Source of the DNA: Candidatus Latescibacterota bacterium
GTDB lineage: Bacteria; Latescibacterota; UBA2968; GCA-2709665
DNA: 64,000 nt
Assembly (NCBI GenBank): GCA_965205485.1
Contig: OZ242180.1
Location: 3,488,001-3,552,000 of the forward strand
Reading direction: 5' to 3'
Shown here: in pieces, positions 1-64,000 of the stretch
Numbering within the stretch: the first letter of the stretch is position 1
Layout of the letters: each line of letters opens with the position of its first letter
Position numbers: made by a program

Positions 1-3000
1 GCGCCCACAAGGGACGCCCCTACAAGACGAGGGCGAACCAAAGACGCGACGGTTGGTGGGTCTGCGCCGGCATTCGAGCCGAATTGTAATCTGAGGCGAG
101 TACGAGGCACTATGAACCGAGAAGACTATTATCGATGGGCTGAACGCGCCGCGCGGTGGGGCGCCGAGTACCTCGAAACGCTCGAGGACCGCCCCGTTCG
201 GGCCCAGACCGTGCCGGGTGAGATCATCGCGATGTTGCCTGCATCGCCGCCTGAATTGCCGGAATCGATGGAGACGATCTTCGCTGACTTCGAGCGCATC
301 GTGCCGGGCGGGATGACCCATTGGCAGCACCCTCGCTTTTTCGCGTACTTCCCTGCCAGCGCCGCGCCTGTTTCGATGATCGCCGAGAACCTGACGGCTG
401 TGATGGCGGCCCAGTGCATGCTCTGGCAGACATCGCCAGCGGCCACGGAAATCGAGACCCGGATGGTGGACTGGATGCGCCAGGCGATCGGACTCCCGCA
501 GGGTTTCCAGGGCGTCATCCAGGACACGGCAACGGCGGCTAATCTCTGCGCCGTTCTGACGATGCGGGAACGCGCGCTCGACTGGCGAGGGATCGGCGAC
601 GGAATGGCTGGGGAGAAGCCGCTACGTATCTATGCCTCGCCGGAGACCCATTCATCAATAGACAAATCCATCCGGATCGCGGGGATCGGCCAACGGAACC
701 TCGTCAAAGTGCCCACCGATGGACTCGACGCTCTCGACCCGGATGCGCTTCGCGAGGCGGTACGCGACGATCAGGCCGCAGGGTTTCTACCGGCCGGTGT
801 GGTACTGTGTGTCGGCGGTACGTCGATCGGCGCGTCCGACCGCGTGCGTCCGGCCATCGAAGTCGCGCGTGAGTTCGATCTCTACGTCCACGTGGACGCC
901 GCGTGGGCCGGCTCGGCGATGATCTGCCCCGAACTGCGGGTGTTGTGGGAGGGCGTCGAGAAGGCGGACAGCATCGTGTTCAATCCCCACAAGTGGCTCG
1001 GCGCGCAGTTCGACTGTTCCATCCAGTTCCTCGCCGATCCCGAACCGCAGGTCCGCACCCTGGGAATCCGCCCGGAATACCTGGAGACACTCGGGCAGTC
1101 CCAGATTACCAACTACAGCGAGTGGACGATCCCCCTCGGGCGCAGATTCCGGGCGCTCAAGCTCTGGTTTCTGTTACGCGCGCACGGGCTGGAAGATCTC
1201 CGAGAGCGGATCCGGAACCATATCGCGTGGGCCGAGGAGGCCGCCGCGGCGATCGCATCGCTGGACGGATTTCGACTGATGACGGAATGCCGCCTGTCGC
1301 TTTTCACGTTCCAATACGCGCCCGATGGCGAGGATGTCGACGACGCCACCGAGCGACTTCTCCGCGCAGTCAACGACGACGGCCGGATCTACCTGACCCA
1401 TACGATCCACGAGGGCAGGTTCGTCATCCGCTTTCAGGTCGGGCAGTTCGACTGTCGAAGAGAAGACGTGCAAATGGCGGTCGACGTGCTGCGGGAGTTG
1501 GCCGCGGGCATTGACCCCTTTGCCCTGAACGAACGTTGATCACGACCCATGGTGATTGAGCGAATTCATGATCATGTCCATCAGACAGGAACGTGAACAT
1601 TTCATTGGGCAGATTAAGGAGGAAATGGCTGAATATCCTGTCCCTCCTCCCCTCGACATGCAGATTCTGGACAAGCACTATCGGTCCGATCGTGATCACG
1701 TTTACGAAGAATGGAAGATTGATTACCGCGTTGAGACGGAAGAAACGATGCCTCAGTTGCCGGGAAGAAGCGTACCGGCATACCTTCTGGTCCCCAAAGA
1801 TGAGCGATTCTCACCACCCTACCCGGCAATGGTTGCCTTTCATCAGTGCAACACCGACTGTATTATTGCAAAGGATGCCGTTGTTGGGAAGGCCGTCCAA
1901 CGCCCCGATCAGGCCTATGGCTATGAGCTTGTTATTCAAGGGTTTGTCGTTCTGGCGCCTGATGCGATAAATTGCGGCGAGCGTAATATTCCTTCAATCA
2001 GACGCCCCTATGAGAACAATCACTGCCATCAGATTCTGAGCGAACCCCTGGGACGGCCTTTCTGGTTCAAGCACGCGTACGATGGAATGCGCGCGGTCGA
2101 TGTCCTTTCAGCACTGGACTTTGTGGATTCTGAACGCATTGGCGTGATCGGTCACTCCATGGGATCGGCGCAGGCTGCCAGTACGATGGCTCGCGATCCG
2201 CGCGTCAAGGTGGGTCTTGTAACGGGGCGGGTCACAAAAAAGAATCTATTGGCAATTGCACCGCGCTATCTGATGACGGTGCTGCAATCTCTGGAAAAGA
2301 CTCCTGAAACTATCGCGCAGATTCGAGAGTACTTCGACGAAGCCATGCGGGAATTCTACGAACCGGACGGGTTGTCAGATCATTTGTATCTTACCGTTCA
2401 GAAATGCGGGCACAGTTTCCCCGATGAATACAAAAGCGAAGCATTTTCCCGGTTGAGGAGCTATTTCAATGCGAGCTCAACCGACGTCCAATTCGGCAAG
2501 GCGGTTGGAGAAATCGATGAATAAGTGCTCCCGGTTCTCAGGCGGCTGCGGTTGCGGAGAGTTCCGATACGGGCTCCGGAACCCGCCCCTTTTCGTACAC
2601 GCATGTCACTGCCTCGATTGCCAGAAGGCATCCGGTTCCGCATTCCGGATTACAACCATCGTCCTGGAACGCGACATCGTGATCAATCAGGGCGACGTTT
2701 CGTTCAGGAAGATATCGACGCATCGAACGGAATTCATCTGCAAGTCCTGTGGTGATGTCATTTACGGGACTGCGACGAATCACCCTGCAACGGCGCTCCT
2801 GAACACGAGAACACTGGATGACCCCAGGATGCTGGAGATCGGTGCACATATCTGGACCGTAGACAGGCACCCCTGGCTTGTTTTGCCGACCGATGTTCCT
2901 CAGTATGAAAAGGGATACGAAAGGAACGAGGTTTGGCCACAGGAGAACCTGCAACGCCTGCGTCGCGCTGTGGATGAAGGTGGCCGGATCTAAAGATGAA

Positions 3001-63000: not shown

Positions 63001-64000
63001 AACGGCCCGCATGAGTACCGCGCATCTGAGGACGTGCTTGAAAAAGCGTCTGGTGAAGTGAAGCAGTACGAATTTCACTGGACGGTTTCAGAGTATCTCA
63101 GGGCCGTCATCGAGCAGGGCGTCGATCTGATCAGGTTCGAAGAAATCGGGGATGAAGCCGAGGGATGGGAGGGCGCGCCGCTTCAGGGCCTGCCCCAAAT
63201 GCTCTTGATCGCGGGGAGAAAAGTCTGAACCAGAGGTATATTCCAAATGACGACTTTCCGTCTCATCCGGCACGGCGAACCCGACTGGACCCTGGCAGCC
63301 GGCGGTAATCTGAAGGACAGGGAGGACGGCTGGGCGGTACATATCGTTCCGTTGACCCAAACCGGCATCGGCGAGATCGAACAAGCATCAGAATCTCTTG
63401 TAGCTGAAGATTATCAACTGGTTATTTCTTCTCCCATGACACGTGCGTTCCAGTCGGCCACCGTCATCAGCCGGATTCTCGACCTCGATCTTCGCGTCGA
63501 ATTCGATCTGCACGAATGGGTATGCGCGTGGCGACCCTCGCTTGAGCTCGTCGATAAGACCGTAGCCGAGATGCTGTCGCTCGGAGGCGAATGGCCGTCC
63601 GGCGAGACGAGAGACTGGGAGCCGCTATCGAGCGTACGCGCGCGCGTCACTCGTGTTCTGGATCGTTACGGAGACTTCGAGCGCATAGTTGTGGTCTGTC
63701 ACGAAACCGTGATTTTCTCGCTCACTGAAAAATGGGTGGGACACGCCGAATCAATAACGCTGGAGAGATAGCCGCCTTCGCTCGCAATACCTTTTTTGCC
63801 CACTTGAAATAACCCAGGGACCTCGCCGTCGCCATGGGCTTTTATTTTGTCAAAAATGAAACCTGCTACGAGAATTGGTGTCATATAGGAAAAAGGGAGG
63901 TCGCCAATGATTCCTCAATTCAAGTGGTATTGCTGCCGGCATTTGCTTCGGATTGTCTGTATGGATTGTCGTTTCGCAGACAATAAGACATTCATCTTCC

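Follow-up and report, generated by a model that had tools for sequence, protein, structure and literature searches.

Integrons are defined and detected by way of an inserted segment in the integrase IntI, to which the recombination of folded single strands is attributed. Sedentary integrons and CALINs consist of single-gene cassettes in one orientation, with a G|TT crossover, sites that are conserved in structure and not in sequence, and a content of modifying enzymes and toxin–antitoxin pairs. Their arrays lie on the leading strand, an orientation described as restricting excision in large sedentary integrons (PMC8946536). In the Bacteroidales, rAID-1 clusters are described as a 5´ recombinase of the XerD-like tyrosine type together with co-directional genes of lower G+C and intergenic repeats that were called integron-reminiscent; in that account they are restricted to Bacteroidales, reach 31 genes and ~16 kb, and carry genes for interbacterial immunity, with >44% identity to the B. 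fragilis rAID-1 recombinase among the criteria (10.1101/471110). In Treponema and others, the enzymes of “inverted integron-integrase” integrons have been treated as IntI (PMC4889954). Among the “integron-like” tyrosine recombinases, which include those of IS91/IS3 elements, the members without the insertion are assigned to insertion sequences in the published classification (10.1101/542381). The integrons described from Xanthomonas have classical IntI and attC, and the genomes of the most active species have 3–29 sites each (10.1101/2025.06.18.660453).

Here we have analyzed a 64,000-nt stretch (the window; contig positions 3,488,001–3,552,000) from a Candidatus Latescibacterota bacterium, which contains the distal third of a ~180-kb array of short genes. 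The features given above for sedentary integrons and CALINs recur at this locus, including the position on the leading strand (skew extremes at 1.06 and 4.09 Mb). Differences are found in the recombinase, which lacks the IntI insertion, scores under the TIGR02249 cut-off, and is co-oriented with the array with attI at its 3´ end; in the sites, whose right arm exceeds the left by ~3 nt and whose modeled 9-pair stem is free of bulges; and in the array, two thirds of which are site-free. The combination that marks rAID-1 in its description, a 5´ XerD-like recombinase followed by two or more co-directional genes, is found here as well, whereas the host and base composition are different (Ca. Latescibacterota and a G+C of 0.564, against Bacteroidales and a gene G+C of ≤41%). 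By the same description, the present locus also stands apart in its ~180 genes, its cargo of mostly enzymes and toxin–antitoxin pairs among the ORFs with an assignment, its broken recombinase and its age gradient. The absence of the IntI insertion sets the enzyme apart from the integrases described for Treponema. With the “integron-like” subgroup it shares the status of closest IntI relative without the insertion, but the association is with cassette arrays here and with insertion sequences in the published cases. The account of Xanthomonas parallels ours in that a single ancestral locus lost its integrase repeatedly, the arrays later became stable and some cassettes were exchanged across species; it describes no counterpart to the long site-free fossil layer. 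The layout of the platform is already published for Bacteroidales (rAID-1), and the new contribution of the locus is the layered fossil array.

An earlier note had reported a one-directional array with short products, lower G+C, few overlapping pairs and integron-type content, present or absent gene by gene between congeners, and our re-analysis agrees on all of these points. With our own gene calls for the whole genome, 174 of the 181 genes at contig 3,373,000–3,552,200 are on the plus strand. Among stretches of 180 genes, the best one contains 174 on the same strand; elsewhere the count does not exceed 157, and 300 run-shuffles gave at most 170. Median gene length is 227 aa against 316 aa in the rest of the genome, same-strand neighbors overlap in 5.3% of cases against 11.8%, and the G+C is 0.564 in the array and 0.570 in the window, against 0.601 in the remainder of the genome. 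A Pfam scan of the 181 ORFs returned 7 APH, 10 GNAT, 14 methyltransferases, 8 glyoxalase-fold proteins, 5 NUDIX, 4 aminoglycoside NT/AAC and several toxin–antitoxin pairs, with many ORFs left without assignment. Genome-wide, the array makes up 3.5% of the sequence and holds 7 of the 12 APH and 7 of the 30 glyoxalase matches. The plus-strand run starts ~48 kb before the array; these earlier genes are excluded from it because they are long and of normal G+C, and because the 20 kb tested, the co-directional flank immediately upstream of the array, is nearly all retained in the five compared congeners. Across the genus, the array is at one fixed locus and measures 170–240 kb.

The array starts from the remaining tail of a tyrosine recombinase in the same orientation, with an attI-like site (contig 3,373,303–3,373,495, plus strand), 114 kb upstream of the window. 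Such a site is seen at the recombinase 3´ end in 12 of the 13 arrays examined (G009 gave no attI-like match within the 40 kb examined), and the two are joined not only in this genus but in another family. Sequence comparison indicates that the recombinase retains its catalytic residues and has no IntI-specific inserted segment; against TIGR02249 it scores 214.8 bits in two stretches, with a cut-off of 265. None of 15 genus genomes has an IntI above this cut-off or an intact recombinase, the latter being broken or absent in every one, and the search for IntI in the genome studied here yielded only two tyrosine recombinases, both far from the array and one scoring as XerD. The recombinase tail and attI are repeated up to about six times per array, and in two genomes a module of toxin–antitoxin pair, small gene, recombinase and attI starts at a G|TT junction. 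By sequence, the closest solved structure is VchIntIA (PDB 2A3V), and a tree places three IntI sequences in a single clade within relatives that lack the insertion, with little resolution of the deep branches. A scan for a Pc promoter in 1.9 kb around the G011 platform gave one consensus match, with 1.7 expected by chance. A 196-bp repeat near the array head was considered as attI and dropped, since it has 46 copies genome-wide, 9 of them within the array.

The 288-aa recombinase of G013 is not full-length, as the lengths of its homologs show that an N-terminal domain is missing; our first structure model and its fold search cover the recombinase core only. The public record includes an intact 376-aa protein that shares 97% identity with the G013 core. 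A structure model has a confident small alpha/beta domain at N-terminal residues 10–72, and PF07443 (HARP, the module of SMARCAL1) is matched weakly in 36 of 81 family members (best E 5e-4, under the cut-off). Compared with the PDB, the profile of the N-terminal domain gave a single match, 4O66, at E 0.12, and nothing usable was obtained from the PDB with the single sequence or from the Atlas. These matches hint at a HARP-like N-terminal domain in the intact recombinase. One speculative possibility is that this domain takes over the role of the IntI insertion in binding the branched hairpin; the same hairpin sites also occur beside recombinases with no detected HARP-like domain. In the literature covered, mostly outside subscription journals, we found neither a HARP-domain recombinase nor the array at this locus described.

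Six attC-like hairpins are located at contig 3,376,613–3,411,738 (plus strand), outside the window. The attC-like sites noted earlier are real in the first 40 kb of the array, to which they are confined, with half-sites extending to ~80 kb, and none is found in the window. Sites in the young part of the array and in congeners have inverted cores around a stem of conserved structure, and a young cassette is one gene or a toxin–antitoxin pair with its hairpin site. From their sequences, we take the hairpins to be real sites of a recombination type because neighbors change at G|TT and because ends follow the circle rule, by which the 5´ core of a cassette is complementary to the 3´ site of that same cassette. 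In other genera, this rule holds for 44 of 70 pairs against 8 (permutation maximum 11), a count free of the circularity that partly affects the counts from the genus, for which 36 training sites were chosen for stem pairing from the same arrays: 20 of 31 adjacent pairs obey the rule against 1 of 31 same-site (permutation maximum 8), the site profile has 277 hits on the plus strand and 1 on the minus, and the stem has 124 two-sided changes against 45 in shuffles. This covariation suggests a folded substrate. Six of the 31 genus pairs run from attI to the first site, and in 5 of these the attI end matches the left core of the first cassette itself. Shared cassettes switch neighbors with the breakpoint at G|TT, and the same cassettes are found behind attI or behind a hairpin site; the 70 breakpoint junctions reuse the same cassettes, some at repeat elements, and GTT is kept by only 30 of the 70 partners.

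The distance from core to stem is 4 nt on the left and 7 nt on the right in 25 of the 36 sites, and the 9-pair stem is modeled without a bulge, with one unpaired base beside the spacer. Classical attC, by contrast, is described with two or three extra-helical bases in the left arm (PMC2727003). The geometry thus argues against a classical integron remnant (CALIN), in which a true IntI placed the cassettes and was later lost, leaving the insertion-less recombinase as a bystander or passenger. Such a history has a precedent in Xanthomonas, for which intI loss and frozen arrays have been reported together (10.1101/2025.06.18.660453); the core motifs agree with the R boxes of integrons, the recombinase is able to move within the array as part of the module mentioned above, and true IntI genes are present in 6 of 61 relatives, one of them of the same family. 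We nevertheless consider it very improbable, given that the attI-like site is fixed to the 3´ end of the recombinase in the genus and in another family, and that the three genomes of other genera with the most site hits (65, 47 and 34) lack an IntI above the cut-off, whereas the IntI-bearing G017 has 4 hits. The site model gave no match at 11 loci around classical IntI genes, a weak control as the cassettes there are unconfirmed, and no cassettes were seen in one 4.2-kb stretch read near classical IntI. The earlier description as an integron cassette array can be kept in the sense of integron-like, with sites and circle rule in place, but it is no orphaned array left behind by a classical integron.

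Along the array, right-arm half-sites are found in 7 of 33, 6 of 66 and 0 of 45 spacers. Identity between species drops from ~94% near attI to background, with medians of 92–95% in the proximal part, 81–90% in the window and 81–88% in the flanks. Kendall tau for gene order is 0.05–0.91 proximally against 0.94–1.0 in the window, and GC3 is 0.60, 0.64 and 0.67 along the array (genome 0.74). Site decay, identity, order and GC3 all grade with distance from attI. The small number of sites, raised in the earlier note as an argument against a cassette array, reflects this decay, and the relatives said there to be too distant for alignment of spacers have spacers that align at 92–100% at the young end.

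The proximal identity of 92–100% across species with flanks 81–88% alike could also arise if present-day turnover consisted only of homologous recombination, the young end being swapped between species as whole blocks via shared cassettes, repeats and an anchor gene, with the stacked attI remnants as leftovers of the swaps. The same cassette occurs behind more than one site and the break lies at G|TT, which speaks against such swaps; multi-cassette blocks common to G013, G011 and G008 speak for them. None of the 15 genomes has an intact recombinase to drive insertion today; the 376-aa protein on record implies that active platforms may exist in the population. The contigs of four public sequencing runs contained no clean single-cassette joint at attI, and in a public run a single contig of one relative skips ~4 kb, the gap having a copy of the 196-bp repeat at its end. 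Taken together, we find block swapping alone a rather unlikely account of current turnover.

The window holds the distal third of the array (positions 112–63,771, plus strand), with ~65 genes that are collinear in congeners and no attC-like site. Of the genes of at least 90 aa, 57 of 62 are on the plus strand. When these 62 were compared with five congeners, 22 were present in all, 36 in some and 4 in none, and 38 of the 65 absence runs comprised one gene only. Some genes are long or operon-like (an ABC permease, genes of 634–808 aa). Homologs of 10 of the 65 window genes, 47–77% identical, are intact cassettes in other genera, and the remaining 55 have no cassette homolog in the limited set searched; control gene runs gave 0 of 81, 0 of 134 and 0 of 45 (0 of 260), and the whole genome 16 of 3,839. 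All of the following genes are on the plus strand. A hydrolase-fold gene (1568–2524) has a 50% identical homolog immediately before an attC-like site in L054, and a BrnT toxin with a small partner ORF (25,170–25,674) is 47% identical to an ORF preceding one in L165. Intact cassettes correspond to a metallo-beta-lactamase-fold gene (9789–10,655; 70% in L134), a HAD hydrolase (25,825–26,478; 77% in L161, and 75% to a cassette from the young portion of the array in G011), a pyrophosphatase-like gene (41,014–41,382; 70% in L132), a GNAT acetyltransferase (42,660–43,136; 66% in L170), an aminoglycoside adenylyltransferase-like gene with an AadA C-terminal domain (43,170–43,910; 72% in L170), an HTH gene (55,399–55,704; 61% in L169), a DUF402 gene (58,156–58,794; ~60% in L166 and L128, there first after attI) and a SAM methyltransferase (58,996–59,808; 69–72% in L169 and L113). 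The Pfam scan further assigned a Gp49-like and HTH gene pair of toxin–antitoxin type (38,582–39,126), a MazE/MazF-type toxin–antitoxin pair (40,381–40,974) and an APH-family kinase (44,322–45,347).

Neither sites nor half-sites remain in the window: a covariance model run over it with filters off gave a best E of 0.36, and alignment of the regions behind 8 window genes against their cassette homologs revealed no site remnant. Rfam gave nothing at gathering threshold and a single chance match at E 0.56. Elsewhere, an nhmmer match at contig 1,065,620 falls within a gene and was set aside. Because no boundary in the window retains a site, we infer the cassette origin of its genes from the homologs and the gradients.

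A non-coding repeat is present in two copies of the same orientation (4810–5449 and 41,410–42,094, plus strand), the second of which ends in an attI-like core and is weakly similar to attI. The copies may be old attI sites, but the likeness is weak and tblastn detected no recombinase remnant. In G013, G011 and G008, the slot corresponding to 41–42 kb of the window is occupied by a second attI-like site of older age, together with a few cassettes that have sites. A TonB-dependent receptor with its partner (12,850–18,580, minus strand) is outside the cassette row; this block is 85–88% identical to one at contig 2.12–2.13 Mb and is common to one of the five congeners. Its entry shows that non-cassette DNA can be acquired here, and might be taken to mean that cassette capture was limited to the first 40–80 kb and that the window is an adjacent flexible island, its short genes gained by other routes and co-oriented by replication. 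The window has no sites, and other same-strand runs in the genome are long, with up to 157 of 180 genes. An island of this kind would not explain, however, why cassette homologs exist for 10 of the 65 window genes and for none of the 260 in control runs, why site density, identity, order and GC3 follow one gradient, why three congeners retain an attI-like site and intact sites at the 41–42 kb slot, or why the tested co-directional flank has no gene-by-gene loss. We judge it improbable.

Most likely, an integron-like system with a recombinase lacking the IntI insertion assembled the array by adding single genes one after another. We are fairly confident in reading the locus as a run-down, sedentary, integron-like gene-capture locus of which the window would be the oldest layer. 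The recombinase would insert circular cassettes at attI, each new one displacing older ones outward such that position becomes a record of age. The sites are presumably recognized as folded single strands, because the stems vary in sequence yet keep pairing. With age, sites would be lost through deletion, point change and insertion of small repeats, and old cassettes would become ordinary chromosomal genes that are inherited vertically, drift to the codon usage of the host and suffer single losses. The layer in the window may have been deposited before the compared species split. Activity seems episodic, because none of the 15 genomes has retained an unbroken recombinase, yet its tail and attI recur up to about six times per array; a platform would arrive, add cassettes and decay.

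A wider proposal, which we put forward tentatively and at somewhat less than even odds, is that there is a second type of integron chemistry, whereby insertion-less recombinases acting on branched single-stranded hairpins, with a HARP-like helper in one lineage, built the genus-wide 170–240-kb arrays. The recombinase–attI platform would be a traveling unit that adds a layer and then dies, and the array a dated series of cassettes on their way to becoming inherited genes; much of the co-oriented accessory DNA of other bacteria could consist of such fossil arrays, invisible to current tools.

If this holds true, an insertion-less family that keeps attI, hairpins and cassette circles would widen the definition of the integron, and current surveys would miss a reservoir of mobile genes that includes many enzymes modifying small molecules. 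The fate of old cassettes would become testable, as the array presents a continuous series from cassettes shared across species to site-free genes. How fast sites decay, codon usage drifts and genes are lost could be measured along one segment of the chromosome in at least six species.

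The host genome is a single contig of 5.13 Mb that includes the window at contig 3,488,001–3,552,000, and 174 of the 181 genes called in the array (contig 3,373,000–3,552,200) lie on the plus strand. Genes were called with a simple codon model of our own, and gene totals therefore differ slightly from those of the earlier note, which had described a one-directional array with short products, lower G+C and few overlapping genes. Each of these features is borne out. No 180-gene window elsewhere in the genome has more than 157 same-strand genes, compared with a maximum of 174 in the array, and 300 shuffles of strand runs never exceeded 170. 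The median product is 227 aa in the array and 316 aa elsewhere, G+C is 0.564 vs 0.601, and 5.3% of neighbours overlap vs 11.8%. The cassette-type content claimed for the array was recovered in a Pfam scan of its 181 ORFs (by our tally APH 7, GNAT 10, methyltransferase 14, glyoxalase 8, NUDIX 5, and aminoglycoside-modifying 4), and, of the APH and glyoxalase matches in the whole genome (12 and 30), seven of each fall in the array. Two further long same-strand runs, at contig 3,997,000–4,087,000 (plus) and 4,690,000–4,841,000 (minus), have normal gene length and G+C. Cassette homologues and sites are absent from both, and they served as controls.

The same two flanking blocks enclose an array in the eight congeners that have both blocks on one contig, at a spacing of 170–240 kb. 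Out of 14 congeners, five arrays were rebuilt whole and the 5´ 20–80 kb of seven more, leaving out G005 and G007. A co-directional flank of 20 kb is kept almost completely in the five congeners used for the gene comparisons below.

The host has two tyrosine recombinases, each distant from the array. It has no IntI; a match above the TIGR02249 cut-off is absent from all 15 genomes of the genus and present in 6 of 61 relatives. A different recombinase is found, whole or in part, at the 5´ edge of the array and in its orientation in five congeners (G013, G011, G008, G003 and G010). In this enzyme the catalytic residues (R, K, H, R, H and Y) are retained, and the inserted segments specific to IntI are missing. 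By sequence, its best PDB match is VchIntIA, with two aligned stretches that bypass the insertion. About 140 nt 3´ of the stop codon of this recombinase is a conserved attI-like site with a G|TT end. In the host only the last codons of the gene and this site persist, at contig 3,373,303–3,373,495, 114 kb upstream of the window. The site is present in 12 of 13 arrays examined, in up to about six copies per array, and was not found in the 40 kb examined of G009. In two genomes, a module of a toxin-antitoxin pair, a small gene, the recombinase and attI starts at a G|TT junction. An intact recombinase is found in none of the 15 genomes of the genus: G013 lacks the N-terminal domain, in G011 the full-length gene spans two frames, and in the remaining genomes it is fragmentary or missing altogether. 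The homologues listed are mostly of 350–400 aa, and one intact natural homologue, P0001, has 376 aa and shares 97% identity with the core of the G013 enzyme.

In congeners, spacers close to the array head contain hairpins bounded by a TAAC core at the start and a GTT core at the end. Across 36 distinct sites, 85% of the modelled pairs form. Two-sided changes occupy 124 cells compared with 45 in shuffles, a figure inflated by the choice of sites for stem pairing. In 25 of the 36, core and stem lie 4 nt apart on the left and 7 nt apart on the right. The modelled 9-pair stem is free of bulges, in contrast to classical attC, whose left arm is described in a passage of PMC2727003 as having two or three extra-helical bases. 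Matches to a sequence profile in 13 arrays, training sites counted in, number 277 on the plus strand and one on the minus strand.

Two tests link these sites to recombination. First, insertion in circular form predicts that the three variable bases 3´ of the 5´ core of a cassette are complementary to those preceding its own 3´ site. In the genus 20 of 31 adjacent pairs obey this rule (permutation maximum 8), as do 5 of 6 attI-to-first-site pairs; between the two ends of a single site the figure is 1 of 31. Among pairs from other genera, which did not enter the training set, 44 of 70 obey it vs 8 (permutation maximum 11). Second, where a shared cassette has differing upstream neighbours, mean identity is 0.2–0.6 before the G of G|TT and mostly 0.8–0.95 from about ten bases after it. 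The 70 junctions of this set count the same cassettes more than once and take in some repeat-element junctions, and GTT is kept in 30 of 70 partners.

Sites fade along the array. A covariance model finds seven in the host genome, six within 40 kb of the array start (contig 3,376,613–3,411,738, all plus) and one elsewhere, at a small second locus. Right-arm half-sites are carried by 7 of 33 spacers in the proximal part, 6 of 66 in the middle part (none past about contig 3,454,000) and 0 of 45 in the window; control runs give 0–1. The window has no hairpin site; its best covariance-model match with filters off has an E value of 0.36. Median identity to five congeners is 92–95% in the proximal 40 kb, 81–90% in the window and 81–88% in six flanking genes; gene order is shuffled proximally (tau 0.05–0.91) and fixed in the window (tau 0.94–1.0), and GC3 climbs from 0.60 through 0.64 to 0.67 (genome 0.74). 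In this age gradient the window is the oldest layer of the array and is free of sites. On one contig, a site arm lost from the host is still present in a relative. Turnover of the young end today may proceed by site-specific or homologous recombination. A 196-bp MITE-like repeat with inverted ends (L003:5498–5693) has 46 copies genome-wide, nine of them in the array and six of these in its first 42 kb, one directly after attI; it may contribute to site erasure.

Of 62 window genes compared with five congeners, 22 are present in all and four in none, and single genes make up 38 of 65 absence runs. Ten of 65 window genes have homologues (47–77% identity) among 178 ORFs of other genera that immediately precede a hairpin site; the same search gave 0/81, 0/134 and 0/45 in control runs and 16/3,839 elsewhere in the genome. 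For the remaining 55 window genes, this limited set contains no match of at least 40%. Behind eight genes aligned with cassette homologues, no site remnant was found. In the slot matching window 41–42 kb, G013, G011 and G008 have an older attI-like site and, behind it, intact sites; the host has a repeat with an attI-like core at its end that otherwise resembles the attI-like site only weakly. This composite non-coding repeat (window 4810–5449, 41410–42094 and, as an inverted piece, 47110–47221; contig 3,407,559, 3,421,784 and 3,462,454) has five copies in the orientation of the array, three of them ended by the core, and is present in the host, G014 and partly G001. We have moderate confidence in a cassette origin of most window genes. 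The minus-strand block at window 12850–18580, a TonB-dependent receptor and a repeat-containing partner, is a separate insertion, duplicated from or to contig 2.12–2.13 Mb and with internal direct repeats spaced 2.3–2.5 kb. At window 55160–55310, AT-rich short TTTAA-type repeats form an inverted repeat directly before an HTH gene, with counterparts at the corresponding place in G013, G014, G008 and G003. Tandem 114-bp units lie at window 47308–47533 (two copies) and 53932–54215 (about three).

Of 168 genomes of the phylum, 27 carry close relatives of the recombinase; further ones come from records titled Atribacteria, Deltaproteobacteria, Bacillota and Saprospiraceae. A site at E <0.01 is present at 13 of 28 recombinase loci taken with flanks of 1.5 kb (eight downstream co-oriented, four upstream divergent, one otherwise). 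The site-richest genomes of other genera (65, 47 and 34 sites) have no IntI above the cut-off. Four loci (L132, L134, L136 and L154) form a well-supported clade of insertion-less recombinases with no HARP-like match, their site upstream and divergent as in the classical integron layout. In G020 an insertion-less recombinase is present in six copies (e.g., L155:2019–4350, L157, L163), followed by an IS91-type transposase-like ORF in the copies read. Several head, or sit within, co-oriented site arrays, and L155 has a site-like hairpin after the second ORF.

The first 70 residues of P0001 are confidently predicted by a structure model to form a small alpha/beta domain. Of 81 family members, 36 show a weak match to Pfam HARP in this domain (best E 5e-4), and the sole PDB match of the domain profile is the SMARCAL1 HARP domain (4O66, E 0.12). 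HARP domains bind DNA junctions. Passages of PMC5416776, PMC9368896 and PMC3409536 ascribe fork affinity only to the HARP-bearing enzyme as a whole and cite a HARP-domain title. The HARP-like match is absent from the divergent clade and the IS91-type unit, both of which adjoin the same sites. This counts against a role for HARP; hairpin recognition may therefore reside in the core common to the family.

Site clusters beyond the main array are also seen in G013, G014, G008 and G006. The host has a second small platform (L109; contig 1,783,320–1,779,823, minus, within a minus-strand gene run) comprising a partial attI-like site, one toxin-antitoxin-type cassette whose hairpin site is intact, and another cassette, of 752 aa. 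A plus-strand run of 28 short genes at contig 1,088,000–1,113,000 (G+C 0.552, a little beyond the skew minimum), with two APH genes and four cassette homologues, is probably another fossil array. A pair of APH genes, together with paralogues of array genes, lies at contig 773,000–780,000 (L114, minus); the model found no site there, and the group is possibly a further remnant.

We propose that the recombinase inserts cassettes at attI, its substrate presumably being a folded single strand. To judge from the skew extremes, the array would lie on the leading strand, which would keep excision low (cf. a passage of PMC8946536). Sites would decay with age and renewal would be episodic, through incoming platforms. 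Published passages name the extra domain as the defining feature of IntI (PMC9024848), link the nearest IntI relatives without it to insertion sequences (10.1101/542381), and place co-oriented integrases among true IntI (PMC4889954). The layout itself has been published: in rAID-1 of Bacteroidales a XerD-like recombinase heads co-directional genes with integron-like spacers (10.1101/471110). For mobile integrons, cassettes that include pieces of attI are reported (PMC12901181). The papers listed in our literature searches include no description of a recombinase with a HARP domain or of the present array. In conclusion, we have high confidence in the system: the cassette array is genuine and very large and operates as a sedentary integron does, yet falls outside that class as delimited by IntI and attC geometry.
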